Below, one piece after another: positions 9,337 through 31,344 of a stretch of 64,000 nucleotides of DNA. Numbering within the stretch: position 1 is the stretch's first letter; each line of letters opens with the position of its first letter. Below the pieces are notes generated by a model. It worked only from the letters and a program-made list of their open reading frames with translations. It had not been told where the DNA came from and made no database searches. A program made the position numbers and the translations under genes. Source of the stretch: Patescibacteria group bacterium (lineage in GTDB: Bacteria; Patescibacteriota; WWE3; UBA101185; UBA10185). Location: contig JBMORU010000001.1 in assembly GCA_049322215.1 (NCBI GenBank), positions 900,023-964,022 on the forward strand, read 5' to 3'.

Positions 9337-10239
9337 ATGGAAATACCACCCAACCTTAAAACACTTTATAAACACTGGAATAAGCACACAGCCCAAACAT
9401 TACCTAAAACCAACCTTAAACTACCCACAGAACTAACATGGTTTATGGCAGAACGCATGAAAATTTGGGCTAAAAAAAACGCGGGCTTAAACCCACCTTA
9501 TACAGCTGACAAAACTCTACAAACATATAAATTTTGCAATATATACAGAGAACTAGACAGACAAACAATAGAAATACATAGCCATTTAAAAAATTTGCAA
9601 AGTGATTTTTCCCTTTGGTTGCTAAATATCGCATTTCACAGATTTGTGTGCAACCCAAATACAGTTAAAAACGTAGGTCTTTTGAATTATGACTCGCAAA
9701 ATAATAGGGAAGTATATGAAAAGTTACTTAACTTACCTAAACCTAAATATGGTGTTCCTTATGTTTTTCCTATAAGCGTAATTCAAAAATCAAGCTATGA
9801 AACACGCGAAAAGTTTTTTTGCCACTATTTACCTAAGAGAATTCCCACAGTAGCTAAAACAGTACAAAACTTTAATAACACAACTGTTAACAGTGCATTA
9901 GCGCAAATATTGCCTGCGTTTGGTTTCAACTTTAAATTCCACTGGACTGAAATATTAATCGATATCGCTTATCAGTTTCCTAATTTGATTAACTTATATG
10001 AAGATTTTTATATAGGCCCAGGAGCGATTCCTACAGCTAAATTAATTAACCCAAATCAAAATCCAAAAATACTTATAAATATCTGTATAGGAACTAAACC
10101 GGAGAATTTTCCATATTTAACTTTTAACAGCAACCCGGTTTTACTATCTGCAGAAAACTGGGAAGGAATATTTTGCGAATATAGAAAATATACAAACCTA
10201 AAAAAAGGGCAGGGAAGAGTTAGAAGATTTAATCCCTAA
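9337..10239 (+). CDS. Hypothetical protein (300 aa)
   Basis: ORF track. No recognised motif. Confidence 0.35.
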   Translation: MEIPPNLKTLYKHWNKHTAQTLPKTNLKLPTELTWFMAERMKIWAKKNAGLNPPYTADKTLQTYKFCNIYRELDRQTIEIHSHLKNLQSDFSLWLLNIAFHRFVCNPNTVKNVGLLNYDSQNNREVYEKLLNLPKPKYGVPYVFPISVIQKSSYETREKFFCHYLPKRIPTVAKTVQNFNNTTVNSALAQILPAFGFNFKFHWTEILIDIAYQFPNLINLYEDFYIGPGAIPTAKLINPNQNPKILINICIGTKPENFPYLTFNSNPVLLSAENWEGIFCEYRKYTNLKKGQGRVRRFNP

Positions 10240-10257: not shown

Positions 10258-12531
10258 TTATAACTTAGTAGACTTTAACCTTAATGCATTCATAACAACC
10301 GATATGCTTGAAAATGCCATGGCACCACTAGCTAACATTGGGTTTAATAATATGCCTAAAATAGGGTATAAAGCCCCCATAGCAACAGGAATTAAAATAA
10401 TATTGTACCCAAACGCCCAACCTAGATTTTGTTTTATATTCCTCATAGTTGCTTTAGAAAGTTTAATAGCTTTTGGTACCAAAGAAATATCTCCTCGCAA
10501 TAGTGTTATGCCCGCCGATTCTATTGCTACATCAGTACCACTTCCCATGGCAACGCCTATGTCTGCAGTAGCCAAGGCAGGGGCATCGTTAATGCCATCG
10601 CCAACCATAGCAACCACACTTTTTGTATTTCGTGTTTGCAATTCTTTAACCTTTGCAGCCTTATCTTCAGGGAAAACCTCTGCGAATACTTCATCAATAC
10701 CTAACTCTTTAGCTATTGCTTCTGCTGTTACTTTATTATCTCCAGTTATCATTACTGACGTAATTCCCATATCTTTAAGCACTTGAATTGTTTCCTTGGA
10801 AGATTTTTTAATTGAATCTGAAATACCAAGAAGCGCTACATTTTTTTTATCTACACTTACAAAAGAAACTGTTTGTGCTTTCTTACGAAGGCCTTCTGAT
10901 AAATTTGTTAAATCAGCACACTTCATTACCCCCTGTTGATCCATTAGTTTTTGTGTGCCTATTAGTACTTCATGACCATTTACATAAGCTTTTACACCAA
11001 GGCCAGACATGTCTTCAAAGCGTTCCGCCTCATAAACTTTATTGTTCTTTAAGTGGTTTACAACAGCTTCTGCTAAAGGATGATGTGATTTCTTTTCAAT
11101 TGAAAGAATTAACGAAGATATGTAAGCTTTTATATCAATCTCTTCAGGAATTTCCCAATTCAAACTACTTACAACCTCCTCAAGATTATTCATAAACGCA
11201 AATGTCTGCACCTCGGGTTCACCTTTTGTTAAAGTTCCTGTTTTATCGAAAACTACATAATTCACTTTATTTGCTACTTCCAAGCTCTCAGCATTTTTTA
11301 TCAATATACCGTTTTGAGCACCCTTACCAGTACCCACCATAATAGAGGTAGGGGTAGCAAGTCCTAAAGCGCAGGGACACGCAATAATTAATACGGCAAT
11401 AAGGTTAACCAAAGCTAAAATAAACGAAGGTTGAGGTCCAAAATTAAACCATATTAAGAACGTAACAATTGCAAGCATTAAAACTACAGGAACAAAATAA
11501 GAAGATACTGTATCTGCCAACTTTTGTATTGGTGCGCGAGATCCTTGCGCCTGTTTTACCATTTCGATTATTTGAGATAGCATTGTTTCGCTCCCAACTT
11601 TTGTTGCTTTCATTTCAAAAGAGCCACTTTTATTTATAGTCGCACCTATAACTGTATTTTCTACTACTTTTCTAACCGGCATACTTTCGCCAGTAACCAT
11701 GCTTTCATCTACAGCGGATTCTCCTTTAGTTATTACACCATCTACAGGAATTTTTTCTCCAGGTTTAACAATTAATATATCTCCAACAACGATTTGGTCT
11801 ACGGGAATTTCTAGCTCTTCCCCATCTCTTAATACTCGTGCTGTTTTAGCCTGCAAGCCAAGTAGTTTTTTAATTGCTTCCGAGGTTTGCCCTTTTGCCC
11901 TCATTTCCAAAAACTTACCAAGCAAAATCAAGGTAATAATAGTTGCGGAAGTTTCAAAATATACATGTGGTTCTATTCCAAAGTTTAAAAGTTGTGTCTC
12001 AAACAAAACCACAATTACAGAATAAAAATAGGCGACAGAAGTACCAATTGCAATCAAGGTATCCATGTTTGCTGTACGATTTTTAAGACCAGACCATGTA
12101 CTTTTGTAATACTGAGCTCCTACCCAAAATTGCACGGGTGTAGATAAAATCCACATTATCCAATAGTTTTTTAATATAGCAGGAGCAAATGGAATCATTG
12201 CACCAAAAAGCAAGAAGAATGTAAAAAAGCTACTCCAAACAAGTTTTGTTTTTACCTCCTTTACTTCTTTTGCCTTTTCTTTTTCGACTAAATCTTCTTG
12301 AGATTCGTTTTCCTGTCCAATTACTGCTTTGTAGCCCACATCCTCAACTGCTTTTGCAAAATCTTCTGTTTTGCAACTATCCTCATGCTCTACAGTTGCT
12401 TGTTCATTTGCATAATTCACGTGGGCAGATTTAACTCCGGGCAAATTTTCTAGACTCCTGCCAACATTTATTGCACAACTTGCACAATGCATACCTGAAA
12501 CATGAAATGTTGTTTTTTTAATATTACTCAT
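10258..12531 (-). CDS. copA: Copper-translocating P1B-type ATPase
   Basis: An N-terminal HMA domain carries GMHCASCA. The TM metal site CPC ([10 protein letters not shown]) is present. The phosphorylation motif DKTGTLT and the hinge GDGINDAP are present. The start is set at MSNIKK, which has an AGGAG RBS and an ATGA overlap with the upstream gene. Confidence 0.9.
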
Positions 12532-12899
12532 AAATCTGCTCCTGACTCTACAACCTTTATTTTTCCGTGAAACATGTTCATTCCACATGAAATTTCATAT
12601 TCTCCAACTTCTGCAGGGTTAATTACGATATTAGTAGTTTTGTTTAGTCCCAAGTGCTCTCTAATATTAAAATCTGGAATTACAACTTCGTCTAAACAAG
12701 AACTTGCATCTTTTCTATAAAATTTTAAGGTTACTGGCTTACCTTTTTTGACTTTGATTACATTTGGTTTATAGCCACCTTCTACAGTAATAGTTATCTC
12801 GTTTGTAACTTCTACGGCTTTGCTTTCTTTTTTCATAAAAAAGAACCAGTAAGTAAAAATTATTAATAGTATTCCTAATAAATTAATTAGTATTGTCAT
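12528..12899 (-). CDS. Cupredoxin-like small copper-binding protein (membrane-anchored)
   Basis: 123 aa with an N-terminal TM. The C-terminal motif [16 protein letters not shown] carries Cys/His/Met ligands, as in cupredoxin-fold domains. Its stop overlaps the copA start. Confidence 0.5.
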
Positions 12900-13034: not shown

Positions 13035-13472
13035 TTATAGTGCCCACTCGAATTTAAGAACTTCACCTTCTATTTCAGTTATAGTGAGAAAAATTGTCGT
13101 TGCTTGTGGATTCATTGTAGAAAATTGAAGTTCTCCACTTAAGTGATGTCCTCCGCGATCACCACTCCAAGACACCGGTTGATATTCATTTCCCTCATTG
13201 TCCGTTAAAGTAATTATTTTCTTCAGGTCAAAATCTAATTCTACAGAATGAGTATTGAGAGTAATCTCAAAATTGGAAGTACTTAGTGGGGTAACTTGAA
13301 CGTTTACAGCACCCATTGTTCCACTTTTAGAATCAAGAGGGTTTGTGTCAGATACGGATGTTGTAGGTTTTTCTGCTTTTGGGTTTGAAATAAATACCCA
13401 ACCTAAAAACACTAATAGTAATATTGTTATTGGAATAATAAACTTTTCAAATTTTTTCATAATTAGCTCCAT
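13035..13472 (-). CDS. Secreted hypothetical protein in the copper operon
   Basis: 145 aa with an N-terminal TM or signal. Predicted beta-rich. A GGHH motif is present. Confidence 0.35.
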   Translation of the reverse strand: MELIMKKFEKFIIPITILLLVFLGWVFISNPKAEKPTTSVSDTNPLDSKSGTMGAVNVQVTPLSTSNFEITLNTHSVELDFDLKKIITLTDNEGNEYQPVSWSGDRGGHHLSGELQFSTMNPQATTIFLTITEIEGEVLKFEWAL

Positions 13473-13944
13473 ATAAGTGTTTGAGCATAAAACCTATCCC
13501 AAACAAATTAAAAACTATACCCACAGCAAAAAGTTCTTTTGTGTAAGCTCCTAAAAAAGATGCGAGCGCAGAGGCACCTAAGATAGGTAAAACATCTACT
13601 GCATGATGCGCACAACAAGCAACCATTGTTGCAGTACTGGTGGCACCGGTAACTTTAGATACTTTATTAGTTTGCATTGTTTCCATGTGTTTAATTTGCA
13701 ATAACTTAGATAATGCAAGCTGCATTCCGAAACCTAAAGAAAGTGCCAATATCCAAGGACGGTAATAATTAAACTGAGAAATTGCAGTTTCCATACTACC
13801 TGTAGTGATTCGCATTAAAATGAGATATATGGCAAGTAAAAAGGTAGTTCCAAATACAAAATATGTAATTAGTTTAAAGAGCTTATTAGTGTTTTCCACA
13901 ACAATCTCCATTTTCTTCTTTGTTTTCCAACTCTTTAGTTTCAA
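13447..13944 (-). CDS. Small polytopic membrane protein with a CC..HH motif
   Basis: The segment TATMVACCAHHAVDV lies in a TM or loop region. The gene overlaps both neighbours. Confidence 0.35.
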   Translation of the reverse strand: MKLKSWKTKKKMEIVVENTNKLFKLITYFVFGTTFLLAIYLILMRITTGSMETAISQFNYYRPWILALSLGFGMQLALSKLLQIKHMETMQTNKVSKVTGATSTATMVACCAHHAVDVLPILGASALASFLGAYTKELFAVGIVFNLFGIGFMLKHLYGANYEKI

Positions 13945-14812
13945 CCTCTACTGTAGTATTTGTATCTCTTGTAGATAGAGCATGTTTAATAATTACAGTC
14001 AAAAATAAAACAATAGCCACAAGAAATATTGCATTAGCACCGGGAACAGAATTTAGCTTTAGTGCTAAACTATTTATATTCTCAGAAAAGCCCTGCGCCA
14101 TTTCTGCCATCGAAAAATCGGTTGCAAGGGCTAAATACACAATTACAAATCCCATTATTGTAAAAATGAAAAACGATATTACATTTCCCATTATTATTGG
14201 ATAGGTTTTAGAAAGTATTTTTATTTCACTCAATTTTCTCTTAAAAAACTTCATACCTAAAACTTTTTTCGTATCTAAAAAGTATGCGCCTATATACAGG
14301 GGAGTAACCATTCCCAAAACATACACAAAACCTATAAGCAATGCTTGCCACAAACTAGGGGACATAATGCTAAGGGTCAAAACTCCAACCAGTACAGGGG
14401 CACAACATGCGCTAGTTATACCTGAGAAAACACCTAAAGTGAAAATAGAAACAACATCCGTACCTTGTTTGCCCGACTGGTTAATATGTGGCATTGGAAG
14501 TTTAAGTCCTAATAAAGAGGCCAATCCAACCAGAATCATAAAAGTACCACCAAGCAAATAAATTTGTTCATGATACCTAAAAACTGCAAGAGAAATTAGT
14601 TTTGAGCCCAAAACTGCAGGAATCATTACAACAAATATGCCTAAGGAATAAACTAGCGTCATGAGTAAAACTCTTTTTCGCTCCTTAAAGACTGAGCCTA
14701 AATATGCAGGAAGCAAATACGACACACAGCATGGGGCAAATAAGGCTACCATTCCTGCCAAAAACGCTGCAATTATTGACGTTTGAAAAAGTATTGCTTC
14801 ATTCATAATCAA
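13886..14812 (-). CDS. CcdA/DsbD-like transmembrane thiol-disulfide or metal transfer protein
   Basis: Polytopic. Paired cysteines sit in TM segments at FAPCCVSYLLPAYLG and TSACCAPVLVG, reminiscent of the DsbD/CcdA SPCxxP core. The C-terminus ends in the tail GDCCGKH. Confidence 0.4.
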   Translation of the reverse strand: MIMNEAILFQTSIIAAFLAGMVALFAPCCVSYLLPAYLGSVFKERKRVLLMTLVYSLGIFVVMIPAVLGSKLISLAVFRYHEQIYLLGGTFMILVGLASLLGLKLPMPHINQSGKQGTDVVSIFTLGVFSGITSACCAPVLVGVLTLSIMSPSLWQALLIGFVYVLGMVTPLYIGAYFLDTKKVLGMKFFKRKLSEIKILSKTYPIIMGNVISFFIFTIMGFVIVYLALATDFSMAEMAQGFSENINSLALKLNSVPGANAIFLVAIVLFLTVIIKHALSTRDTNTTVEVETKELENKEENGDCCGKH

Positions 14813-15828
14813 ACTCCGCAGCCGCCACCACCACCTGAACCTTGTACTGGTTTAACCTTTGCAAGCACTGATCTATATCCTGAACCGCTAGAAAACTCTG
14901 CACCTAAAACTTCTTTAGCTACTACAGCAGCCCATTCAAGGTTTCTTTCATCTTCCATATACTTTGCAATTGTTAAGTACGTATCGGGAAACCAAATAGA
15001 ATTTACCGCAAGAGCACTGTTGTAAATTTCATCTTCGGAGTACCCTTTAGCAACCATCATTTCTATTAGACCAAGCATAGCCATACCATGATTACAGTCT
15101 GCAAATGCCGTATGATTATTACAACAAGGTCTATATATGTTTGATGCTATTTGCTTAATCAAAACTTGTTGTTCGGGAGATAAATTAAACAAATTATGTT
15201 TACCATAGTGATCCATTGCACTACCTTGAGCTAAATTCCAACCTCCTGTAGCTGCAAGATTTTCCACTTGAGGATATTCTGAACGCATATCTTCTAGAAC
15301 TAAACTTTGTTGAGCCAAACCCAATGCCCATAGAGCATTTAACACAAATCTTGAATTCTCCCTAGTTAAAACAATGGCTTCATCGTAATTAGTTGTCAAA
15401 ATCTTAGTGTAGTCCGCATTTGCTTTGCTTAAAGGGCCACCTCTAAATAAACTTAAAAATTTTTGCTGGTCTATTACGCCTACGCTAACTAGCTTTGTAC
15501 CAACATCACCCCACTTAACAGGTAACACCACACCCCCCTCGGGAAGTACTGCAACCTCTAGCCTTTGTGCTTGTTTTTCTGGTGTATTTTCTAACTCCTC
15601 ATTTAATTTTTCCTTATAGGCAATAAGCGCATTTACTTGAGATCTATAAAAGTAATATTGAATAATCGCAACACCTAGTGTGGAGTTAAATGTTATTAAT
15701 AAAACAAGAGACATGGGGACACTCTTTTTCAAAAAGCTTTTCATTGAGGTGTTAAAACGTCTAGGCTTTGAAAAGTCACCGGAGTTCGAAGTTTCTAGTA
15801 CTTTTTCTTTCATAAAACTATCTTTCAA
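14809..15828 (-). CDS. Membrane-anchored Cys-containing hypothetical protein with a Gly-Cys C-terminal tail
   Basis: 339 aa. It contains RPCCNNHTAFADCNHG. The C-terminus reads GSGGGGGCGV. An ATGA overlap joins it to the downstream gene. Confidence 0.35.
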   Translation of the reverse strand: MKDSFMKEKVLETSNSGDFSKPRRFNTSMKSFLKKSVPMSLVLLITFNSTLGVAIIQYYFYRSQVNALIAYKEKLNEELENTPEKQAQRLEVAVLPEGGVVLPVKWGDVGTKLVSVGVIDQQKFLSLFRGGPLSKANADYTKILTTNYDEAIVLTRENSRFVLNALWALGLAQQSLVLEDMRSEYPQVENLAATGGWNLAQGSAMDHYGKHNLFNLSPEQQVLIKQIASNIYRPCCNNHTAFADCNHGMAMLGLIEMMVAKGYSEDEIYNSALAVNSIWFPDTYLTIAKYMEDERNLEWAAVVAKEVLGAEFSSGSGYRSVLAKVKPVQGSGGGGGCGV

Positions 15829-15829
15829 A

Positions 15830-16342
15830 TTAATCTACTTCTTTGCTAACTACGTTTCCTGTGAGCCTAAACTCAACCGTACGATTACTTGGATCATTGG
15901 TATCAAATGAAACTAAACGAGTAATTGGCCCGGTGCCTTGAGGTCCATGAAACAGGGGATCAAATACAACCTTTACTTCGGCAGTGGAATCTGGCGCTAA
16001 TGTGCCTTTCCAACTAGATGTAGCATGCATACCAAAAGCAGGACTTTGTACTCCAGCAATAGTTACTTGAGCTTCTGTACACATACAAGAGGTCTTGAAA
16101 TTCGATATATCAAGGTTTGAAGTACCAGCATTCTTAATTAGAAAAGTCTTTTCTACATTGCCGCCCTCAATGTCTATTTCACCCCAATCGTGCAACTTGG
16201 CACCTAACACCTCAACTTTTGCGTCCCCACTGCTTTCTAAAACCGGAGGCTGTGTTTTAGTTGCAAAAATAGTGCCTAAAATTAATATAAAAACTGTAGA
16301 AATACCTATTAAGCTTATTAAGATTTTGTTTTCCTTAGTCAT
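15830..16342 (-). CDS. DUF1573-like secreted or membrane-anchored protein (paralog A)
   Basis: HDWGEI...KTFLIKNAGTSNLDISNFKTSCMCTEAQV fits the DUF1573 pattern of a beta-sandwich with a CxC motif. A second conserved block reads FDPLFHGPQGTG. Confidence 0.5.
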   Translation of the reverse strand: MTKENKILISLIGISTVFILILGTIFATKTQPPVLESSGDAKVEVLGAKLHDWGEIDIEGGNVEKTFLIKNAGTSNLDISNFKTSCMCTEAQVTIAGVQSPAFGMHATSSWKGTLAPDSTAEVKVVFDPLFHGPQGTGPITRLVSFDTNDPSNRTVEFRLTGNVVSKEVD

Positions 16343-16359
16343 TTAGCAAACCTTTCTAC

Positions 16360-16848
16360 TCAATCTAAAATTTTTACATAAATATCAAATTGCATTTCTG
16401 GTGAATTAGCATCATTAGTTTTCACAAATACCGAACGTGTTAGCTCACCTTGAGGTTCTTCATGAAAGTTTGGATCAAAATAAACTGTTAGTTGAGCCTT
16501 TTCATTAAACCCGAGTATTGTTTTATCTACTTCTGCAGACGTACACCCACAAGATGTAGAAATATCACCAATCTCTAGTTGTTCTTTACCGTGGTTTTCA
16601 ATTTCAAAAGTGGTACTAACAACACCGTCATTTCTAGATATAGAACCAAAATCATGCGTATTATTATGTGTTTCTGCTAAGGGTTTATTGTAATTAATTT
16701 CACTGTGATGAACTCCCATCATTCCTACACCCATATAGTTATTAAACCTGTTTATGCCTAGTAAATAAGATAGAGTGGCAACATTCATTAAAACTAGAAT
16801 TGCAATTACTCCATAAAGTACTTTTTTCTCCGTCATATCCGTTTGCAT
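16360..16848 (-). CDS. DUF1573-like secreted or membrane-anchored protein (paralog B)
   Basis: HDFGSISRNDGVVSTTFEIENHGKEQLEIGDISTSCGCTSAEV, with a second block YFDPNFHEEPQGE. It is clearly paralogous to 15830..16342. Confidence 0.5.
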   Translation of the reverse strand: MQTDMTEKKVLYGVIAILVLMNVATLSYLLGINRFNNYMGVGMMGVHHSEINYNKPLAETHNNTHDFGSISRNDGVVSTTFEIENHGKEQLEIGDISTSCGCTSAEVDKTILGFNEKAQLTVYFDPNFHEEPQGELTRSVFVKTNDANSPEMQFDIYVKILD

Positions 16849-17115
16849 TTAATTCTTTCTATAAAGAGAATAAATTTTCACTAATTCATCTATAGCTTTA
16901 TCTTCTTCACCATTTTTCATTTGTTCGACCACACAACCGTTTATATGCTCTTCTAAAATTTGTTTGTCTATCTTTTGTAATGATTTTTGAATGGATAAAG
17001 ACTGGGTAAGTACATCTACACAGTATTTACCTTCTTCTATCATTTTTGAGAGACCCTCAATTTGACCAGCAATGATTTTTAATTTGTGTGAAGTTGATTT
17101 TCTATCGTATTCCAT
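16849..17115 (-). CDS. csoR: CsoR/RcnR-family metal-sensing transcriptional repressor
   Basis: 88 aa. IAGQIEGLSKMIEEGKYCVDVLTQ...EEHINGCVV carries the conserved Cys-His-Cys metal ligands of the CsoR family. It is the first gene of the operon. Confidence 0.8.
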   Translation of the reverse strand: MEYDRKSTSHKLKIIAGQIEGLSKMIEEGKYCVDVLTQSLSIQKSLQKIDKQILEEHINGCVVEQMKNGEEDKAIDELVKIYSLYRKN

Positions 17116-17121
17116 GTGATG

Positions 17122-17146
17122 AATACTACTCCCCCCTATTGGTATT
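17122..17146. promoter_or_regulatory. Candidate CsoR operator in the divergent promoter region
   Basis: AATACTACTCCCCCCTATTGGTATT has ATAC/GTAT arms flanking a C6 tract. It resembles B. subtilis CsoR operators of the form TACCC..GGGGGTA. It lies between csoR and the divergent HMA gene. Confidence 0.4.
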
Positions 17147-17228
17147 AGTCAAGTTCCTTAACAAAACAACGTTATCAAAATGCGAATTGAACTATATAAT
17201 TATTAAACTAACAAGTTAAAATTTAAAA

Positions 17229-18602
17229 ATGCAAAAAAAGGATAAAAAGAGCAATAAAACAAAAAAAAGATATTTTGTACAAGGCATGCACTGCAGTACC
17301 TGTGAAATACTTATTAAACAAGATATTGCAAATCTTCAGGGTATAAATAAAGCCACTGTTTCTTTAAGTAAGTCACATGTAGTTATTCATGCTAATGAAA
17401 CAACTAACATTCCTTCAAGAAACACTTTAAATAAGTTATTTAAAGAATTAGGTTACACTTTTCACGAACAAAAGCCCAAAGAACAAAAACTTAGTAGGGA
17501 AGAGTCTTTAAAAATTATAGGAATAGCACTACTATTTATCATCGCTTTTTACACACTAGAAAAATCCGGAATATTTATGAAATATTCTATAACTGCTCAA
17601 TCATCCTTAGGAGCATACTTTGTTTTTGGATTAGCTGCCGGAATTTCAAGCTGCGCAGCACTTGTTGGGGGGATTTTACTGTCACTTTCGAAAAACTGGA
17701 ATAATATGTATGCAAACAATAAAAGAAAGAGTGTTCTACCTTTTATTTACTTTAACTCATCAAGAATACTAACCTTTGCGCTACTTGGAGGAATATTAGG
17801 GTACCTTGGAAGCTTTTTACAATTATCTATAACATTAACCTCAATTTTAACTTTACTTATTGCATTACTAATGCTGGCATTAGGATTTCAAATGATTGGG
17901 ATTAAGTGGTTTAATAAGTTTAGTTTTAACTTTGTTGGAAACAATAAATACCTAAACAAAAACTCAGAACTAAACGGCAAATACATACCCTTAATAGTAG
18001 GCGCCTTAACTTTTTTTGTTCCATGTGGATTTACCTTAATTGCTCAAACTAACACATTAAATGCAGGTAGCTTTTACAAGGGTATGCTTCAATTAACTGC
18101 GTTTGCACTAGGAACCCTACCAATATTGGCATTGATTAGTTTTTCGAGTGTTAAATTTTACTCAAACCCGAAGTTTGCAAAAAAATTTAGTTTGTTCTCA
18201 GGCGTAATCATAGTGTTTTTTGCACTTTACACAATAAACTCACAGCTAAATGTATTAGGTTTAACAAGCCTTAACGATATTTCTTTTTCAAAAAGCGTAA
18301 CTAGCAAAAGCGACATACAAATAAATAATGCTAATTACCAGGTAATACAACTTGAAGCTATTGGGTTTGAATATTATCCAAAAGAAGTAACAATTCAGTC
18401 GGGAGTGAAAACGCAGTGGTCGATATACGATAATGGGTCAGTGGGTTGTGCTAAAGCAGTATATGCTAGGGGACTATACCCAGATGTCATTTACTTAAAA
18501 CCTGGCATGAACACTGTTGAATTTGTTGCGCCCAAACCAGGTACATATAAAATTTCTTGTTCAATGGGAATGGTACCTCCAGTAACTGTTAGGGTTATAT
18601 AG
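17229..18602 (+). CDS. HMA-domain / polytopic membrane / C-terminal cupredoxin-like fusion protein
   Basis: The N-terminal region reads GMHCSTCEILIK, a CxxC HMA domain. The middle has about 8 TM helices with TM cysteines at SSC and VPCGF. The C-terminus reads YKISCSMGMVPPVTV, homologous to the C-terminus of 12528..12899. Confidence 0.55.
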   Translation: MQKKDKKSNKTKKRYFVQGMHCSTCEILIKQDIANLQGINKATVSLSKSHVVIHANETTNIPSRNTLNKLFKELGYTFHEQKPKEQKLSREESLKIIGIALLFIIAFYTLEKSGIFMKYSITAQSSLGAYFVFGLAAGISSCAALVGGILLSLSKNWNNMYANNKRKSVLPFIYFNSSRILTFALLGGILGYLGSFLQLSITLTSILTLLIALLMLALGFQMIGIKWFNKFSFNFVGNNKYLNKNSELNGKYIPLIVGALTFFVPCGFTLIAQTNTLNAGSFYKGMLQLTAFALGTLPILALISFSSVKFYSNPKFAKKFSLFSGVIIVFFALYTINSQLNVLGLTSLNDISFSKSVTSKSDIQINNANYQVIQLEAIGFEYYPKEVTIQSGVKTQWSIYDNGSVGCAKAVYARGLYPDVIYLKPGMNTVEFVAPKPGTYKISCSMGMVPPVTVRVI

Positions 18603-18653: not shown

Positions 18654-20504
18654 TTGAGCATGGAAGAATTTGAAAGCACACCTTTAGAGCAAAATTCTAC
18701 ACAAAACACTAAAACACCAATACCTGAAACAAAACATGCGTATATAGATAAAATAATATTGATAGCTATATTTGTTATTTTGGTATTTACTACCTACTTT
18801 GCACTTTTTGTTAAACAACCAAAGAGGCAAATACCAGTAAACCAAAGTATTTCGCCAGTAATAGAAAAACCTAGCCAAGAAATAAACAAACCTGAAGAAA
18901 TAATTGTAATTTCGGCAGAAGCGTTAGCTTTTCACAAACCCCAATTAATTAAGCAATTTGAAGACGACGAAGCCACATACGAATTTTATAAAGTAGGCAA
19001 TGTACTTGAAGGTGACTACAAGGGTTATGAAATAGTTAAAGGAAAGTTTCAAACAACGGCAGGACCTTGCAAAGGTCCCGGATGTGGAAAGCCTTTTTTT
19101 ATTCGTTATTTAAAAAAAGATAGAGACTTAATACATTTAGCATTAAACTCTGAGTTAACCGAAATTAAACGATGGGGAATAGATCCTACTAAAATAGCCG
19201 ATTGGAACTTTACACTTAACAACGAACTTACTTTAGAACCTTTTAATCTTCCAAAGGAAACTAATTATAATGGGGGCACAATAAAATATGTTAAAACAGA
19301 AGAAGGTCTACCAAACAATAACACTTATATCGTATACACTGATCCAATTTTAGGCCAAGTATACACAACAAAAGAAAGTGTTAGCCCCCAAGAGCCATTT
19401 TACAGTGGAGAAGAAACAGCTTACGAAACTACAGGAAAATGGGGAGATGGGGTAGATAGCTGCTATAACGAGGAATGCTTTTTTTCAAATGGACTTTTTG
19501 TATTTCACCCTGACGAAACATTTTCAATTTACACATATAAACCTGTAGAATTTTCATACAAAATATTGGCTAGTGAAAAAACTTACAATATAACAGACTA
19601 CGAAGGGGAGTATTACTTTAAAACTAGAAATGGATGTAGTGGAAATGACGCTGATTATATAAGTATTGCAAATCCCTCAAACGTATCAATAAGCGATTTA
19701 AAAGAAGTTGGTAGTTTTAGTCAAGGCGATAAGAGACTTTTATTTTTTAACAATACCGAGCACCCATACCTAACTCATTTTTACGAAAAATACAAACTAT
19801 ATTTCCCTGAACTTGAGCAAATGCGCATAGGAGAAGAAAAAAACCTTACGTTTAAAACTTTTGAAGATTTTTCAGCCGCTTATCCTGTTTTATTCTTTGA
19901 AGACGACTTCGGTAGGTTAGTAAGACTTACGCACAAAGAATTTGTAATACCTTACGCATGTGAACCAATAATTTACTTATACCCTGAACAAGAAACAGAA
20001 ATTAGCATAAAACTTGATACAAATTTGGTTGAATTGGTTGGTTCTAAACCTGAATACAATACGGGCTGGGCTGTTACAGCATTTCCATCAGGAAAAGTTA
20101 TTGATCAAAACAGTAATACTTACCCCTATATTTTTTGGGAAGGAACTTTAAAATATTTACCTGAGAAAAATGATGGGTTTGTGGTTAAAAAAGAAAACGT
20201 GGAAATAAGCTTTAAAAAAACTCTTCCAAAACTGGGTTTAAATGAGCAAGAAACAATAGACTTTATTAAGGCTTGGACACCAAAGCTTAAAATAGCGCCT
20301 TACTACTTTATAACTTTTCATAATACAAAAACAGTTAATACCTATGCTCCGCTAAATGTACAACCAACGCCTACTACAGTGATTAGGATTTTAATGGAAT
20401 ATAAGCCTCTAAATGAATATACAGAGGTGGCACCCTTTAAATACGACAAAACACCCCAAAGAAACGGCTTTACACTTGTAGAGTGGGGCGGTATAGAGCG
20501 CTAA
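18654..20504 (+). CDS. Large membrane-anchored extracytoplasmic hypothetical protein
   Basis: 616 aa. One N-terminal TM is followed by a large soluble domain. Confidence 0.4.
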   Translation: MSMEEFESTPLEQNSTQNTKTPIPETKHAYIDKIILIAIFVILVFTTYFALFVKQPKRQIPVNQSISPVIEKPSQEINKPEEIIVISAEALAFHKPQLIKQFEDDEATYEFYKVGNVLEGDYKGYEIVKGKFQTTAGPCKGPGCGKPFFIRYLKKDRDLIHLALNSELTEIKRWGIDPTKIADWNFTLNNELTLEPFNLPKETNYNGGTIKYVKTEEGLPNNNTYIVYTDPILGQVYTTKESVSPQEPFYSGEETAYETTGKWGDGVDSCYNEECFFSNGLFVFHPDETFSIYTYKPVEFSYKILASEKTYNITDYEGEYYFKTRNGCSGNDADYISIANPSNVSISDLKEVGSFSQGDKRLLFFNNTEHPYLTHFYEKYKLYFPELEQMRIGEEKNLTFKTFEDFSAAYPVLFFEDDFGRLVRLTHKEFVIPYACEPIIYLYPEQETEISIKLDTNLVELVGSKPEYNTGWAVTAFPSGKVIDQNSNTYPYIFWEGTLKYLPEKNDGFVVKKENVEISFKKTLPKLGLNEQETIDFIKAWTPKLKIAPYYFITFHNTKTVNTYAPLNVQPTPTTVIRILMEYKPLNEYTEVAPFKYDKTPQRNGFTLVEWGGIER

Positions 20505-20521: not shown

Positions 20522-20953
20522 TTAGCTTTCTGATTCTACGTATTTTTTGAAATTGTTTAATATAGCTTGCCAGCCTTCACGTTGCATATCAAGAGAATTG
20601 GTGCTTTCAGGATCAAAGGTAACAATTACCTTAGTTTCGGCATTTTCCGAACCTTCAGAATCAGAAATAAAATCAACGCTTACTTGTCTTCCATCGTCCA
20701 TGGTATATGCAAGCTGAGCATAAGTTTCTACCGCATCGTAAGTACCTTCAAAATCAAAGCCGGCGCTTCCATCTTTTGCTTCCATTCTAGATAAAAACCT
20801 ACCACCAACTCTTAAATCATTTTCTGCATGTGGTGTATGCCAATCTTCAGAGGCATTATTCCATTTAACTATGTGTTCGGGTTGAGTGTAAAATTCCCAA
20901 ACTTTTTCTATTGCGGAGTCAATATTTACTTGAATAGTAATTGGTTCTTGCAT
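20522..20953 (-). CDS. SRPBCC / AHSA1-like (START-fold) protein
   Basis: The N-terminal region ITIQVNIDSAIEKVWEFYTQPEHIVKWN...DLRVGG is typical of the AHSA1/SRPBCC family. Confidence 0.55.
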   Translation of the reverse strand: MQEPITIQVNIDSAIEKVWEFYTQPEHIVKWNNASEDWHTPHAENDLRVGGRFLSRMEAKDGSAGFDFEGTYDAVETYAQLAYTMDDGRQVSVDFISDSEGSENAETKVIVTFDPESTNSLDMQREGWQAILNNFKKYVESES

Positions 20954-21360
20954 TATTGTGTTTCCTCTACCATAACTTTAAAACCACCGTAAGCCATTTT
21001 TTCCATATCAAATGGCATAGGTTTATCTTTCCATTCCTCTTTGTTCATTTCGGGGTCTTGCATTACGTTAGCATTTACTTCATCACGGTGTTCTTTTGAT
21101 TCAAAAATAATAAAAGAAAACCAAACTTCTTCATCTTCTTTTGAGTTGGTCATTTCAGGAAAAGTGCGTAATTTCATATCGCCCATTTCACTCATATCAC
21201 CCATATCTGGTGTTAAATCGTCACCTACACATTCAAAGTAAGCTAACGCTCCATGCTTTTTCCATATTTTTCCTGCTTCAGTAGCAATTTGCTTATATGC
21301 TTCTCTTTCACCTTTAGGAACTACAAGTACGAATCCATCTACATATTTCATTTTTTGCAC
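20953..21360 (-). CDS. DUF1428-family protein
   Basis: MKYVDGFVLVVPKGEREAYKQIATEAGKIWKKHGALAYFECVGDDL matches the DUF1428 N-terminal consensus as I remember it. Confidence 0.5.
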   Translation of the reverse strand: MQKMKYVDGFVLVVPKGEREAYKQIATEAGKIWKKHGALAYFECVGDDLTPDMGDMSEMGDMKLRTFPEMTNSKEDEEVWFSFIIFESKEHRDEVNANVMQDPEMNKEEWKDKPMPFDMEKMAYGGFKVMVEETQ

Positions 21361-24935: not shown

Positions 24936-26027
24936 ATGAAAAAGAAGTATTTTCTACTTTTAGTATTATCATTTGGCACCTTAGCAATTGTAATACTTTT
25001 AATTCCACAGTTTGTTAAACAAAAAAACTATATAGAACGTGCTCAAAAAAAATACGAGGAAATCGAGCAAACACCTTTACAAAACCCAACAGTAGATACA
25101 ATACCCTTAAACAAAAAAGTCTACCTATTAATATATAATCCAAAAATAAACGACCAGTACACAAATGAGTATTTTGGTTGGAATGACCCAGAAGAAATTA
25201 CGAATGAAGTTATCGCCTTTTTCAAAAATGTTTCTGAAGGCTATTTAAATTACGAAATAGTTCAAAAAAAGGTTGTAGAGGAATTTCCTGCAAAAGAAGA
25301 CGGCTTTGTATATACATTTGAAAACTATATTGAATGTGTAAATAGCAATGGGGAAAAATGCCATGATCCCGATATAGCCGACTACGTAAAAATATTAGAT
25401 GCGAACAACATTTGTGAAATGTTAAATAACGATGAGATTGACGAACTATGGCTTTGGGGAGGCCCTTGGTTTGGATACTGGGAATCAAATTTAGCAGGAA
25501 GATATTCGTTTTGGTATAACTCTAACCCTACACACTTTAACACCTGTAAAACACCTTTACCAATTATGGGTTTCAACTACGAAAGAACAAAAAACGAAGC
25601 TATACACAATTTTGGTCATAGAGCAGAGAGTACTTTAAAAAGAGTTTTTCAGTCGTGGGATGCAGAAAACACGCATGGATGGAATAGATTTGCACTACTT
25701 TCAAGGAATAATAATGGCCAAGGGGGTTGTGGAAACACACATATTACAGTAAATGGTACCGAAGATTACATTTACACAAATAAAGATAATGTAATGTCTA
25801 ATTGTGAAGAGTTTAAAGATTATCCCAATATAGAAAATACTTACAAAATGGTTAATTGCAATGACTGGGGCTGTGATGAGTTTGAATACTATACTTACTG
25901 GTGGAACAATATTCCAAGAAACACAGGAATAAATAAAGATGCTTTTACAGGCCAAGAAGTACTAAATAACTGGTGGAAATACATTTTTGATTTGAGCTGG
26001 ACATACAATAAAACAACTACTTATTAA
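24936..26027 (+). CDS. Secreted Cys-containing hypothetical protein
   Basis: N-terminal TM or signal. Multiple Cys residues. W/Y/N-rich. Confidence 0.4.
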   Translation: MKKKYFLLLVLSFGTLAIVILLIPQFVKQKNYIERAQKKYEEIEQTPLQNPTVDTIPLNKKVYLLIYNPKINDQYTNEYFGWNDPEEITNEVIAFFKNVSEGYLNYEIVQKKVVEEFPAKEDGFVYTFENYIECVNSNGEKCHDPDIADYVKILDANNICEMLNNDEIDELWLWGGPWFGYWESNLAGRYSFWYNSNPTHFNTCKTPLPIMGFNYERTKNEAIHNFGHRAESTLKRVFQSWDAENTHGWNRFALLSRNNNGQGGCGNTHITVNGTEDYIYTNKDNVMSNCEEFKDYPNIENTYKMVNCNDWGCDEFEYYTYWWNNIPRNTGINKDAFTGQEVLNNWWKYIFDLSWTYNKTTTY

Positions 26028-26090
26028 GCCCATAGTATGATATAATTTCGCAAATAAAACTTAACAAACACCTTATATAAGGAGAGACAA

Positions 26091-27608
26091 ATGAACGTAG
26101 TTTATTGGCAAATGGGAGCTTTGGTAGTAGTTATTTCTGCTGTCATAGGTCTTATTGCGAAATACGCATTGGATAAGTCAGAATCTGACTTGGAAATTAC
26201 CTGGACAGAGTATGCTATTGCTGTTGTGCTAATTTCTGTGGCTTTAGGCCCCTTTGCTGTTTGGCGAGGATCTGAAATTGCACGAAACAACCTTAAGTCG
26301 TTTAACGAAAACATCAACGCGGTAGTGACAGGTGTCAGCATTTCTCAAAAAACCTGCGAAAGAGATGGGGACTGTGTACACACCTATGACTGTGACCGCT
26401 ACAGATGTTCTTACTCATGCGATAGTGACAATGATGGGGACAGCGATGACACTTGCTATAAGTGGTGTTATCACAGTTGCCCATACTGTAGCGTGGAGTA
26501 TCAGCTGTTAATTCACACAAACACCGATGGTTGGTCTGGACGAAATCCGGTTATTGCTTCAAATATCATTCCTCCGGACGCGGATCAAAATTACCGCTGG
26601 CGTCAAAGTGAAGCCATTCCCCAAGGAATTCAAGATGCGTATGGGCGTTACCCGCAACAGTTTTTAGACGCCTTTTACAACCTGCAAAATGGCACCGAAG
26701 CACTACCATTTGTGTACCGGCGACAGTACAACAGTTACACGCTGGCTGCAAATGTTGATTCACCTGAAGAGTGGCAAGATGAAATTACATTGTTGCAACA
26801 GCACAAGCCCAATTTGATGCCAACACTGCAAACAACGGTAACAGGCAGCAACCAGGCGCACCGGGTTTACTTTGTAGGATTTACGCCAACGCCTGCGCAA
26901 GCGCAAGAATGGACAACCACCTTAAGCTATATCAACAGCCCGTTTGGTAACGACAGACAAGGCGACTTGCATGTAGTCATTATTAACAAGCAGGGTGTTG
27001 ATATGAGTTTGACAGATGCCCTAACCGCCATAAAGTACGACTGGCAAAACAGTGCAAAGTACGGCGATGACACCATGGCCAAAAATGCAGTATTGGTTGG
27101 TTTGGAAACTGACGACGGAGCAACAGTATTTCGTGCTGCAATGGTAACCGGCATGCCAGAAGAATTGTTTGATTTGCAGTATAACGATGATTTGCGTGCT
27201 GCAATAGCAAACGACTTAACAAATAAAGGGTTACCTCTTGACCCACAAGTTTTGTTTGGCCGTGCCACAATGCCTTTTACACCACAAACTGAGGAATGCA
27301 CAATTTTTAGCTGCTTTCGTGGTGTGGGGCCAGCGCAGCTTAGTGGGGGTGTTTTGACTGAGCGCTTGTTTGGTGTAACCAACCCGGAGTTGGCATTTCA
27401 GCGAATTAGCATGTCTGCCAAAGATCCAGAAGACGTAGGTCCCGGTTTTGTGGCACTTGATGAGCTAATTATTCCAACACCAAAACAGCAAACCTGGATC
27501 GTGATTTTATCAACGGTGTTTGCTTGCCTGGCTTGGGTTGCTACCGCACTGATAGGACAAAGGTATCGACCGTTTTACAACAGATATAGTAGATTTGGTA
27601 GGTACTAA
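26091..27608 (+). CDS. Membrane protein with an extracytoplasmic Cys-cluster (GC-elevated gene)
   Basis: Two N-terminal TM helices are followed by the Cys cluster CERDGDCVHTYDCDRYRCSYSCDSDNDGDSDDTCYKWCYHSCPYCSV, a large ectodomain and a C-terminal TM. GC is about 45-50% against about 33% background. Confidence 0.4.
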   Translation: MNVVYWQMGALVVVISAVIGLIAKYALDKSESDLEITWTEYAIAVVLISVALGPFAVWRGSEIARNNLKSFNENINAVVTGVSISQKTCERDGDCVHTYDCDRYRCSYSCDSDNDGDSDDTCYKWCYHSCPYCSVEYQLLIHTNTDGWSGRNPVIASNIIPPDADQNYRWRQSEAIPQGIQDAYGRYPQQFLDAFYNLQNGTEALPFVYRRQYNSYTLAANVDSPEEWQDEITLLQQHKPNLMPTLQTTVTGSNQAHRVYFVGFTPTPAQAQEWTTTLSYINSPFGNDRQGDLHVVIINKQGVDMSLTDALTAIKYDWQNSAKYGDDTMAKNAVLVGLETDDGATVFRAAMVTGMPEELFDLQYNDDLRAAIANDLTNKGLPLDPQVLFGRATMPFTPQTEECTIFSCFRGVGPAQLSGGVLTERLFGVTNPELAFQRISMSAKDPEDVGPGFVALDELIIPTPKQQTWIVILSTVFACLAWVATALIGQRYRPFYNRYSRFGRY

Positions 27609-27660
27609 ACCTAATGAGTCATTTCTTGAAGCAACAAACTTTAAGAAGTGACTCTTTTTT

Positions 27661-28749
27661 TTATTCATCTACACAAAGCAGTAAATCGTAGAATACAGAC
27701 TCGTTCGTGGGAGTTTGATTTGCATAAGTTGCTTTTACACTGATTTCATAAACTTTATTTGCGTTATATACGCGTGTCGTTTCCCAAGGAGCATTGGGTA
27801 TCAAAAACCAACCTTCTCCAGGGTTTAAACCACTATCAGGGTATATTCCTAATGTTTCATCAGCAGCCTCTTCAGTGGGACCCTCCATAATTACTGTAAA
27901 GCTTTCATGCTGTTGCGGAGGAACACCGCAGCTACCACCATCTGGGCATTGGTAACAAAGTGGGCCATCGGGACATTGTTCAGGATGCCCCTCGCCTGCG
28001 TAGCCTACAATATAAAGTCTGGAAGGTTCATCAAAAACTATTTCATAGGTATCGGTTGCAACCCCTTTAGTCACTACTAAGTCAGTTAAGCGTGTTAGTT
28101 CTTTTGTTCCAGAAGGACATGCAAGCACAGGGGGATCCCAAGCTTCACATAAACCACAATCACTAGAACACGAACTACAAGACTCACTTGCAGAACAATC
28201 TCCATCTCCACACACTGGGGCACAAGTACCACAATCTGCAGAACAGGTAGAGCAACTTTCACTACCATTGCAGTCTCCATCACCACAAATTGGAAGTGAT
28301 GTGCTTCCTCCCGAACATGAGTTTTCTATAGCAGCACAGCTTTCTTCATGCTCGAAAACTTCATTATCAATTGAACAAAAGCTTAAGCATCCCACGTCGA
28401 AACGAGTTGCATCGATAGCGTAACCATCTGGGGATCCAGCAACATAGCGATATGAATATAGGGCGCCTTCTGGGGTTCCATTTGGCCAATTAGATATTTG
28501 TGTGGCAACACCAGCTTCATCCATAATATTATCGTCACTATTTGTATCTTTCGGGTAATAACCCTCAATAATTCTAAAGTTATGTAAACCTTCTTCGAGT
28601 TTTTTTAAATTAGTTCTAACTACTGAATTTTTTGTGGCATCAACCTGACCCCGTCTGTTTATTACATTTACAACAACACCAGAAAGCGCAGCAATCATTG
28701 CCACTACAATTAAAACTTCAATTAAAGTAAATCCTTTTTTGTTAGTCAT
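27661..28749 (-). CDS. Type IV pilin-like protein with 2 tandem Cys-rich 24-aa modules
   Basis: The N-terminus MTNKKG|FTLIEVLIVVAMIAALSGVV is a class III prepilin signal with Glu+5. The middle carries 2x CGDGDCxxSESCSxCSxDCGxC. The C-terminal domain is shared with the next gene. Confidence 0.65.
   Translation of the reverse strand: MTNKKGFTLIEVLIVVAMIAALSGVVVNVINRRGQVDATKNSVVRTNLKKLEEGLHNFRIIEGYYPKDTNSDDNIMDEAGVATQISNWPNGTPEGALYSYRYVAGSPDGYAIDATRFDVGCLSFCSIDNEVFEHEESCAAIENSCSGGSTSLPICGDGDCNGSESCSTCSADCGTCAPVCGDGDCSASESCSSCSSDCGLCEAWDPPVLACPSGTKELTRLTDLVVTKGVATDTYEIVFDEPSRLYIVGYAGEGHPEQCPDGPLCYQCPDGGSCGVPPQQHESFTVIMEGPTEEAADETLGIYPDSGLNPGEGWFLIPNAPWETTRVYNANKVYEISVKATYANQTPTNESVFYDLLLCVDE
28144..28287 (-). 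repeat. Two in-frame 72-bp tandem repeats encoding Cys-rich modules
   Basis: Same module as 29213..29572, here in two copies. Confidence 0.65.
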
Positions 28750-30058: not shown

Positions 30059-30126
30059 ATATATATAGGATACATAAAGAAAAGCGCTAGGAAAAGCATT
30101 ATTTTTACAGCATAATATATACAGTA

Positions 30127-31344
30127 ATGGATAAGTACTATTCAAAGATATCTCGAATACTTTTAATTATTATTATACTTGGATTAGCTTATACTCTTGG
30201 AAAATGGGCGATTCAAATAAAAACAAATTCAAACACTATAAGAAAACAAGACAAAATTAAAGCACCTGTATCAGTAAAAAATGAACAACCAGAAAAAAAA
30301 CCTTCCTTTAATGACACAATTGAAGTTTACAGAAAACAAAAAGAACAAGAAATAGCTCTTGTTGAATCTAGTGTTTACAGTTTGCCAAACATAATAAGGT
30401 GGAATGACTATTTAATTTACGAAAATAAAGACAAAAACGTAATACTTGAAAATACAAATAATTTCGAAGAAAAAGTACTAATAGCAAAGGACTTTCTTGA
30501 AAATATAGATACAAATGGTAAGGGTATAAATCTTGCAGTATCGGCATATATTAGTGATTTTAAAATTATAGATGATGTACTGTACGTTTCTTATGGAGGA
30601 TATCTTATTGAAGGTGCCATATTTTGGATAGATTTATATAATATAAAAGAGCCACAAATCCTTAGAAGAGGTCCCAACCCACACATAGTGAAATTTGGTA
30701 AAGACTATTGGGTTAGAGAAGGTGAAGGTGACGCGTGTTGGGGATTTGCGCGATTTACACCCGTGAATTTAAATGAAAAAAGTTTAGGTTCAACACTAGA
30801 AGTTACCAGTGGTTGCACAGAAGGGGAATACTTACTGGGCTGGGATACAAAAACAGAGGCATTTATAACCACAAACTACACACGAGAAGATCCTTACTTT
30901 GGGTCAACTACGTATTTAGCATTAAACAAACTTGAATCTGATGGCACAAGAACAACCTTAATAAACATAGACTCCAACTTAGGGGCAAAAATAAAAGACG
31001 TTATTTTATCAAAAACTGAGAGTAAGGTTTACTTGTCCGATGCACAGTCATTGTATATGTACAACATTCCAACTAGTCAATTAAGTAAAATAGGTGATTA
31101 CGAAGACAAAGCTAAAGAACTGCAATTTATAAAAGTGTTAGAAGAAGGCGGTATATGTGTAAGAACAAATGATACAGCTCCTAATAAGCTTATAGATCAC
31201 ACAACGGCAAAATTTATACCGGATACAACTAAAAGATGCAACGACGGTGAAAATCTTTACGGCAAAGACAGATACGTTAAAGAAAATGTAGACTTTCTGC
31301 AAATATTAAGTGATTTGGAAAATTATAATTACAGAATAAAATAA
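30127..31344 (+). CDS. Membrane-anchored extracytoplasmic hypothetical protein
   Basis: 405 aa with an N-terminal TM. It is divergent from the pilin pair. Confidence 0.4.
   Translation: MDKYYSKISRILLIIIILGLAYTLGKWAIQIKTNSNTIRKQDKIKAPVSVKNEQPEKKPSFNDTIEVYRKQKEQEIALVESSVYSLPNIIRWNDYLIYENKDKNVILENTNNFEEKVLIAKDFLENIDTNGKGINLAVSAYISDFKIIDDVLYVSYGGYLIEGAIFWIDLYNIKEPQILRRGPNPHIVKFGKDYWVREGEGDACWGFARFTPVNLNEKSLGSTLEVTSGCTEGEYLLGWDTKTEAFITTNYTREDPYFGSTTYLALNKLESDGTRTTLINIDSNLGAKIKDVILSKTESKVYLSDAQSLYMYNIPTSQLSKIGDYEDKAKELQFIKVLEEGGICVRTNDTAPNKLIDHTTAKFIPDTTKRCNDGENLYGKDRYVKENVDFLQILSDLENYNYRIK

Follow-up and report, generated by a model that had tools for sequence, protein, structure and literature searches.

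Gene and domain architecture of the fusion protein

We analysed a 64-kb stretch of contig JBMORU010000001.1 from a Patescibacteria group bacterium, referred to here as the window (the whole stretch of 64,000 nucleotides). The gene under study encodes a protein of 457 amino acids (aa) that joins an HMA domain, a membrane core of the DsbD_2 family and a CupA-type cupredoxin in one polypeptide. It is located beside csoR, the first gene of a minus-strand operon that ends in copA. The features of the fusion gene are listed below.

17229..18602, plus strand: fusion gene from an open reading frame (ORF) with an ATG start, 457 aa, HMA / DsbD_2 with seven transmembrane (TM) helices / CupA-type cupredoxin
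17271..17456, plus strand: HMA domain, predicted cytoplasmic, residues 15-76, GMHC22xxC25E (PF00403, E=1.4e-10)
17508..17564, plus strand: TM1 linker helix, residues 94-112, predicted to run from the cytoplasm to the outside (hydropathy, AlphaFold2 (AF2) model and flank charge)
17607..18257, plus strand: 6-TM DsbD_2 core, TM2-TM7, residues 127-343 (PF13386, E=2.6e-26)
17652-17654, plus strand: codon of C142 in TM2 of the core
17763..17765, plus strand: codon of R179 in TM3 of the core
18024-18026, plus strand: codon of C266 in TM5 of the core
18327..18599, plus strand: CupA-type cupredoxin, predicted extracytoplasmic, residues 367-457 (Foldseek and family profile)
18447-18449, plus strand: codon of the putative cupredoxin ligand C407
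18558-18572, plus strand: putative cupredoxin ligands C444-S-M446-G-M448

In the Pfam search, the HMA domain (residues 15-76, motif GMHCSTCE) reached 41.8 bits against a cut-off of 24.8. DsbD_2 (residues 130-334) reached 93.2 bits against a cut-off of 24.9, with a match that spanned model positions 2-199 of 199, and all 55 aligned homologues (55/55) matched this model too. Cupredoxin_1 was found at residues 367-449 with E=8e-4 and 19.8 bits, under the 27-bit cut-off, and it was matched by 55/55 aligned homologues at E<=0.1 (best 2e-8).

The AF2 model of the fusion had a predicted local distance difference test score (pLDDT) of 81.9 and a predicted TM-score (pTM) of 0.77. Its top Foldseek match in the PDB was Cu(I)-CupA 4F2E (E=4.8e-5, target TM-score 0.80, root-mean-square deviation 2.0 A), and the second was the metal-binding domain (MBD) of pneumococcal CopA, 4F2F. 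Furthermore, the family profile reached S. pneumoniae CupA at E=1.1e-5 and 4F2F at E=1e-4. Because homologue, profile and fold matches agree, the third domain was assigned as a cupredoxin despite its Pfam score below the cut-off. It is joined to the last TM helix by a tether of about 22 residues.

The HMA part of the family profile matched the HMA structures of CopA, ATP7B, CopZ and MerP with E-values down to 6e-36. The fusion HMA also matched the HMA domain of the window's own CopA (E=1e-9), and its GMHCxxCE motif was invariant among the aligned homologues. Judged by these profile matches, each soluble domain of the fusion has proven Cu(I) chaperones among its homologues.

The earlier note on this DNA, made from the sequence before any database search, had proposed a fusion of these three parts, and the Pfam, profile and fold matches bear it out. 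All of the motifs that it named were found in the ORF, namely the CxxC of the HMA domain, SSC (C142), VPCGF (C266) and the C-terminal C-x-M-x-M, which reads YKISCSMGM (440-448). It had also named three Pfam families, with a mixed outcome: HMA PF00403 was present, Cupredoxin_1 stayed below its cut-off, and DsbD_TM PF02683 was matched by 7/55 homologues (best E=3.4e-9) and not by the window protein at E<=0.1. A core from an unrelated transporter family, an outcome that the same note had allowed for, was not seen; the core was DsbD_2.

The database entry identical to the fusion (100%) sits on a 1.11-Mb Patescibacteria contig and is named 'MAG: sulfite exporter TauE/SafE family protein [Patescibacteria group bacterium]'. 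An assignment to TauE/SafE was rejected, as TauE PF01925 was matched by 0/55 family members at E<=0.1 and not by the window protein.

Membrane topology of the fusion

Seven TM helices were recognized from the family-averaged hydropathy and the AF2 model, comprising the TM1 linker (94-112) and the 6-TM core (127-343), instead of the 8-TM core that had been counted at first. The count matters because eight helices would place both soluble domains on one side of the membrane. TM1 was the highest peak of the family-averaged hydropathy (2.45) and corresponded to AF2 helix H90-113. Its flanks contained 3.07 lysine plus arginine residues (K+R) before the helix and 0.64 after it.

The mean K+R values of the inside segments were 3.1 before TM1, 2.8 for TM2-3, 5.6 for TM4-5 and 2.9 for TM6-7, compared to 0.6, 0.4 and 0.5 for the outside loops TM1-2, TM3-4 and TM5-6. 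The totals were 14.4 inside and 1.5 outside, and divergent homologues gave 13.5 and 1.1. The N-terminus was rich in lysine. The HMA domain was placed inside, because no signal peptide was found ahead of it and a strongly hydrophobic helix follows it.

TM7 runs from the inside to the outside and is followed by the cupredoxin. The cupredoxin would lie outside whatever is assumed for TM1, because the orientation of the core follows from the loop charges alone. The predicted topology of the fusion is therefore N-in/C-out, with a cytoplasmic HMA domain and an external cupredoxin. The earlier idea of metal-binding domains on opposite membrane faces is upheld in this prediction by the seven helices and the positive-inside charge bias, and a one-sided placement of the soluble domains was not seen.

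In the AF2 model, TM2 is broken exactly at C142 (H127-138/H141-160) and TM5 exactly at P265-C266 (H250-263/H267-279). C142 lies in the first and C266 in the fourth helix of the 6-TM core, both of them mid-helix. In CcdA and DsbD, the cysteines are likewise located in the first and fourth helices of the core. The symmetric helix breaks of the model suggest a 3+3 repeat; an hhalign comparison of TM2-4 with TM5-7 gave a probability of <=1.3%, so that no internal repeat was detectable at the level of sequence profiles.

R179 is located about one third into TM3 from the cytoplasmic side and is accompanied by N/H176. This invariant arginine may tune the cysteine thiolates or join proton coupling.

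Conservation and spread of the family

Conservation was assessed in an alignment of 117 full-length homologues (41-81% identity) and in a divergent set of 113 full-length representatives (down to about 29% identity). C22, C25, C142, C266, C407, C444, M446 and M448 were 100% conserved in the 117 homologues, and these include each of the six cysteines that the fusion holds in all. In the divergent set, C142, C266, C407, P265 and R179 were kept in 113/113 representatives, C22 and C25 in 111/113, C444 in 112/113 and M446 in 110/113. M448 was kept in 103/113, with His in 3 more. T261, T269 and Q273 of the core were also invariant in the divergent representatives, at about 30% identity. Given this conserved Cys/Met pattern, the motif match is not due to chance.

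An exhaustive HMMER search of 1.84 billion representatives returned 586 clusters at 50% identity (E<=1e-30), and relatives were present in at least 496 species in a scan of one genome per species. Most of them belong to Patescibacteria, including WWE3, Saccharibacteria, Microgenomates and Parcubacteria lineages, and DPANN archaea and a few Chloroflexi are also represented. The family is thus large and catalogued, and it is functionally unstudied.

Genomic context of the fusion in related genomes

The neighbourhood counts rest on 80 related loci that were kept. A full CopA was encoded within 4-6 kb of the fusion homologue in 65-67/80 loci, nearly always directly downstream on the same strand, and the two genes often overlap or abut. 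csoR adjoined the fusion homologue in 32/80 loci, nearly always directly upstream on the same strand. In some of the other loci, csoR is replaced by a BlaI/CopY-type repressor, an ArsR-type repressor or a two-component system. In 20/80 loci, copA is also accompanied by separate small genes of the HMA-only (CopZ-like) type. No thioredoxin or reductase recurred as a neighbour in the 80 loci. A mercury system was considered and rejected, as mer genes were absent among the neighbours in the 80 loci.

The compact order csoR>fusion>copA was shared by all of the closest relatives, at 81, 71 and 70% identity. CsoR-type operators, for example ACATATCCCCCCATGGGGGACTAT or TATACCTGGGGGGTAGGTAT, were found upstream of csoR in loci of this order, directly after a TTGACA box and 10-15 bp ahead of the csoR ATG. 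A strict regular expression had found few CsoR boxes in the related loci, and direct inspection upstream of csoR showed them. Palindromic boxes with C/G tracts, analogous to the box of the window, were present in the loci L083, L084, L001 and L002; no such box was seen within 130 bp upstream of csoR in L081/L082, the closest relative (81% identity).

At the family level, membership in the CsoR/CopA copper-stress regulon is supported. The earlier note had considered the fusion to be probably CsoR-regulated from its divergence from csoR. For the family this part stood, given csoR in 32/80 loci, copA in 65-67/80 and the operators of the relatives; for the window itself the claim is weaker, since the only box there overlaps the csoR promoter.

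The fusion was split after TM7 in 6/80 loci (L027, L037, L038, L041, L066 and L076), which carry a gene for HMA plus seven TM helices and an adjacent gene for a cupredoxin of 130-153 aa with its own N-terminal hydrophobic anchor. The split genes are not frameshifts, because each shows a clean stop codon and a new ATG. L037 has an extra CupA-like gene ahead of copA. In the manner of a Rosetta-stone argument, the split genes support a functional link between the membrane part and the cupredoxin. The charge count around the anchors of the split cupredoxins was ambiguous, so that sidedness is not independently established by the split genes.

Copper operon of the window and its cupredoxin

The copper genes on the other strand of the window are listed below.

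16849..17115, minus strand: csoR, 88 aa, predicted Cu(I)-sensing repressor, first gene of the operon (PF02583, E=1.5e-23)
17124..17144, no strand assigned: CsoR-type operator candidate TACTACTCCCCCCTATTGGTA, the only match in the 64-kb window
13035..16848, minus strand: six extra genes between csoR and cupA-copA
12528..12899, minus strand: 123-aa membrane-anchored CupA homologue, predicted to face the cytoplasm (PDB profile matches; Cupredoxin_1, E=5e-25)
10258..12531, minus strand: copA, predicted Cu(I) P1B-type ATPase with N-terminal HMA (GMHCASC) and CPC motif (ORF and sequence)

The csoR product matched the NCBIfam RicR-type copper repressor (E=2e-17) and has the C32...H57-x3-C61 (C-H-C) ligand pattern. 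After csoR, the operon continues with genes for two DUF1573 proteins and then for proteins of 339 aa, 308 aa (DsbD-like), 165 aa and 145 aa, followed by the cupA-like gene and copA. The fusion is transcribed divergently from csoR across a 113-bp intergenic region.

The CsoR-like box at 17124-17144 would be expected 0.07 times by chance in the 64-kb window. It sits between the candidate -35 (TTGACT, 17152-17147) and -10 (TAGTAT, 17128-17123) of the minus-strand csoR promoter, and it ends 28 bp upstream of the candidate fusion -35 (TTATCA at 17172), which is followed by a -10 (TATAAT at 17195-17200) at a spacing of 17. Predicted autoregulation of the minus-strand operon by CsoR is well supported, and direct repression of the fusion by CsoR in this genome is plausible.

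The divergent csoR/fusion layout of the window is derived, because all close relatives have the co-directional order csoR>fusion>copA. In L002, homologues of the 135-aa and 143-aa proteins of the window (20522..21360) are located upstream of csoR. This arrangement indicates a local inversion or insertion in the window genome.

The 123-aa protein of the operon matched the PDB entries of CupA, 2MRY and 4F2E, at E=8.8e-21 and the CopA MBD 4F2F at E=4.6e-13, and its motif is YEISCGMNM. Its TGA stop overlaps the probable copA start, the ATG at 12531, as ATGA, which would allow translational coupling. The protein has 413 detectable relatives, mostly in candidate phyla radiation (CPR) genomes. Among 118 homologues, CxMxM was present in 118/118, and K+R was greater after the anchor than before it in 118/118 (2.92 vs 0.54). 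From this N-out/C-in charge bias, the 123-aa domain is predicted to be cytoplasmic, on the opposite face to the fused cupredoxin. The orientation agrees with the cytoplasmic role of pneumococcal CupA (PMC7558416, PMC5646241).

Homology of this protein to the C-terminal module of the fusion, as claimed at the outset, was supported by BLASTP (E=1e-4), in which 71 aa aligned at 27% identity and the two Cys and two Met were matched. Each of the two modules matches S. pneumoniae CupA as well, and the motif that they share reflects descent from a common ancestor. Direct transfer of copper from one cupredoxin to the other is not obvious, and it is unlikely because they are predicted on opposite sides of the membrane.

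Comparison with known copper and thiol systems

Classed by its family matches, the fusion is a DsbD-type scaffold with copper-chaperone modules, and its memberships are DsbD_2, HMA and CupA-type. With CupA and the CopA MBD (4F2E, 2MRY, 4F2F), the C-terminal module shares the cupredoxin fold, the ligand pattern Cys...Cys-x-Met-x-Met and the cop operon context. In CupA, these ligands form a binuclear Cu(I) site with a bis-thiolate S1 and a Met-rich S2. CupA differs in being a small cytoplasmic protein with an N-terminal anchor. The module of the fusion has no such single anchor, is placed C-terminal to seven TM helices and predicted outside, and has about 21% identity to CupA. Furthermore, the window CopA, the partner of the 123-aa protein, has an HMA domain and not the cupredoxin MBD of pneumococcal CopA.

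DsbD, CcdA and ScsB share with the fusion a homologous core, cysteines in its first and fourth helices at helix breaks, outward core termini and, for ScsB, a link to copper. In contrast to them, the fusion has no thioredoxin-fold domains, and two domains of the copper-chaperone type flank its core. Its first Cys motif, SSCAA, lacks the Pro of the second, PCG. The family also occurs in cop operons and not in cytochrome c or Dsb contexts. It has been speculated in one paper that DsbD-family proteins might bind or pass Cu+ (PMC7785015).

The closest analogues in mechanism are MerT/MerP and MerTP, in which an HMA domain is likewise coupled to a Cys-bearing membrane protein and a thiophilic metal is moved by ligand exchange. 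However, the membrane domain is not homologous, the Mer HMA lies outside, transport is inward, and the operons carry mer and not cop genes. NCBIfam MerTP_fusion (NF033556) matched residues 6-77 of the fusion, its HMA part (model positions 115-184), with 28.9 bits against a cut-off of 180.

COG2836 proteins of the type HMA+DsbD_2+DUF2318, the nearest relatives described so far, share the N-terminal HMA domain, the DsbD_2 core and a predicted CsoR control beside copA. COG2836 proteins with HMA and DsbD_2 were predicted as CsoR-regulon members in gut Firmicutes in 2016 (PMC4938975). Their third module is DUF2318 and not a CupA-type cupredoxin, and the fusion family had no DUF2318 matches.

The P1B-type ATPase CopA resembles the fusion in its N-terminal HMA domain with GMHCxxC and in its Cys ligands within the membrane, and the two share an operon and, presumably, a substrate. 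However, the actuator, phosphorylation and nucleotide-binding domains were absent from the fusion in the Pfam search, and it therefore cannot be ATP-driven. The earlier distinction from P-type ATPases was sound, as matches to ATPase models and structures were confined to the HMA part.

Proposed function and alternative explanations

Tentatively, and at a little short of an even chance, we read the fusion as a copper-stress component in which Cu(I) crosses the cytoplasmic membrane by ligand exchange along three thiolate stations. The cytoplasmic CopZ/CopA-like HMA domain would capture Cu(I) at C22/C25, and the half-helix pair C142/C266, located mid-membrane in the CcdA/DsbD-type 6-TM core, would take it over. 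The core would expose C142/C266 alternately to either face, as relatives of this scaffold do with such a pair, and the flexible tether of about 22 residues would let the external cupredoxin take the metal at the bis-thiolate C407/C444. From there Cu(I) would shift to the Met-rich C444/M446/M448, to be released or sequestered externally, and the energy might come from Cu+/H+ exchange at the thiols. The relay order from HMA to C142/C266, then to C407/C444 and to C444/M446/M448, is the most economical reading. We infer that copper rather than electrons moves, as well as its direction and energy source.

M446 and M448 of the external cupredoxin are kept, although a pure dithiol redox module would not need them, and this speaks for the copper relay. 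The two chaperone-like domains on opposite faces, the invariant C142 and C266, the frequent CopA and CsoR neighbours, the split genes, the precedent of MerTP and the predicted CsoR control of COG2836 proteins favour it as well. Since the gene belongs to the CsoR/CopA regulon, the best reading of its role is detoxification alongside CopA, by export or external buffering, and not uptake. In its widest form, the proposal is that a DsbD-type scaffold has been repurposed from electrons to metal, giving an ATP-independent Cu(I) translocase that is a standard CopA partner in hundreds of Patescibacteria and DPANN lineages. This form is possible, though we would sooner expect it to fail in some part.

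Several points weigh against a copper relay. The core is homologous to the electron transporters DsbD and CcdA and not to a proven copper carrier, and no energy-coupling element is visible in the fusion. Cu(I) export is already provided by CopA from this operon, which leaves the need for a second route unexplained. The CsoR box of the window does not lie over the candidate promoter of the fusion. Furthermore, no experimental characterisation of the fusion architecture was found in the literature on DsbD_2+HMA, COG2836, PF13386, DUF2318+copper or Patescibacteria+copper, in which the 2016 prediction for the CsoR regulon was the one relevant paper.

The strongest alternative, which we regard as unlikely but in serious competition, is an electron relay of the DsbD/CcdA/ScsB kind. 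Electrons would cross from the HMA CxxC through C142/C266 to C407/C444, and copper would bind only at the ends. Such a relay would hold the outer CupA-type site in its reduced state during copper stress, or would reduce Cu(II) to Cu(I). It draws on the DsbD_2 match (E=2.6e-26), the DsbD_TM matches of 7/55 homologues, the cysteines in the first and fourth core helices, each at a helix break, and a succession of three Cys pairs like that of the DsbD cascade. The DsbD-like ScsB is described as copper-induced and as an aid to copper tolerance (PMC10907172, PMC3322552), and in vitro the S1 cysteines of CupA reduce Cu(II) (PMC5646241, PMC7558416).

However, a thioredoxin-fold domain is present on neither side of the fusion and none recurs among the neighbours of the 80 loci, the Met ligands are near-invariant, the window protein has no PF02683 match, and the 3+3 internal repeat was not detected. 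In addition, HMA domains are not known as reductases. The host organisms are mostly anaerobes without a periplasm, for which the oxidation of external thiols is a smaller problem. These points count against the electron relay, although a thioredoxin donor may be encoded elsewhere in the genome.

A two-sided accessory of CopA was also considered and appears rather improbable. In such an accessory, nothing would cross the fusion; the HMA domain would be a tethered CopZ that feeds CopA, the external cupredoxin would take Cu(I) at the exit site of CopA in the manner of CusF, and the membrane part would serve mainly as an anchor and as a dock to CopA. The direct adjacency to copA, often with overlapping or abutting genes, and the resemblance of the fusion HMA to the CopA HMA would fit, as would the role of CupA-type domains as dedicated CopA partners in streptococci (PMC7558416). 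However, a plain anchor needs no 6-TM core with invariant C142, P265-C266, R179, T261, T269 and Q273, and 20/80 loci already carry HMA-only (CopZ-like) genes beside copA.

MerP-MerT works inward, and a thiolate relay is chemically reversible. A copper importer, which the earlier note had entertained and in which the cupredoxin would capture external Cu(I) and pass it through the Cys pair to the HMA domain for cuproprotein supply, could further draw on the rise of DsbD-family genes under copper limitation in an ammonia-oxidising archaeon, for which Cu+ import was speculated (PMC7785015), but it is very improbable, as the gene lies in CsoR-repressed copper-stress operons with the exporter CopA, which are expressed at copper excess, when an importer would be harmful and detoxification or export is to be expected.

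Other genes of the window

Of the six extra genes between csoR and the cupA-like gene, two encode DUF1573/OS_HP2-type proteins with CxC motifs (TSCGCTS and TSCMCTE), and the 339-aa protein is Cys-rich and ends in GGGGGCGV. The 308-aa DsbD-like membrane protein has vicinal CC pairs in two helices (APCCVSY and SACCAPV). ACCAHH occurs in the 165-aa membrane protein, and the 145-aa protein is DUF5643-like. In each of L015, L050, L053, L066 and L073, at least two of the three kinds (DUF1573, 308-aa and 339-aa proteins) have homologues beside the fusion homologue. These extra genes may form a second Cys-based envelope copper module.

Downstream of the fusion, a 616-aa ORF (18654..20504, plus strand) starts at a distance of 51 bp and encodes an N-terminal membrane anchor, with no Pfam or NCBIfam match. 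It was rejected as a partner, as a homologue was beside the fusion in 0/80 related loci, and it is probably outside the system.

On the other side of the operon, a 300-aa protein (9337..10239, plus strand) adjoins copA. It matched the helical domain of 5-hydroxymethyl-dU DNA kinase (PF18723, E=5.5e-20), from a family of phage-type enzymes for DNA hypermodification. A GC-rich stretch at 26000..30200 (0.42-0.44 vs about 0.33-0.36 elsewhere) carries genes for a 362-aa and a 467-aa protein with N-terminal type IV pilin methylation motifs, and the neighbouring large ORFs had no family matches. Rfam and tRNA scans of the window returned five tRNAs only.

Significance for Patescibacteria and related lineages

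P1B ATPases are credited with almost all of the Cu(I) that bacteria export over the cytoplasmic membrane. The fusion family is conserved and linked to copper-responsive repressors, and it combines chaperone-type domains predicted on both faces with an invariant intramembrane Cys pair and no ATPase domains. It is therefore a concrete candidate for a second, ATPase-free Cu(I) route or for a version of the DsbD electron relay devoted to copper. The domain assignments also correct a systematic misannotation, by which such proteins are labelled 'sulfite exporter TauE/SafE' in hundreds of genomes of CPR and DPANN lineages.

CupA was described as confined to a few streptococci in a review from 2020. 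The present results indicate that Patescibacteria commonly have binuclear copper sites of the CupA type, both in anchored proteins predicted to face the cytoplasm and in the fused module predicted to face outward. If the fusion is indeed a Cu(I) translocase, CupA-type copper sites would also work outside the cell.

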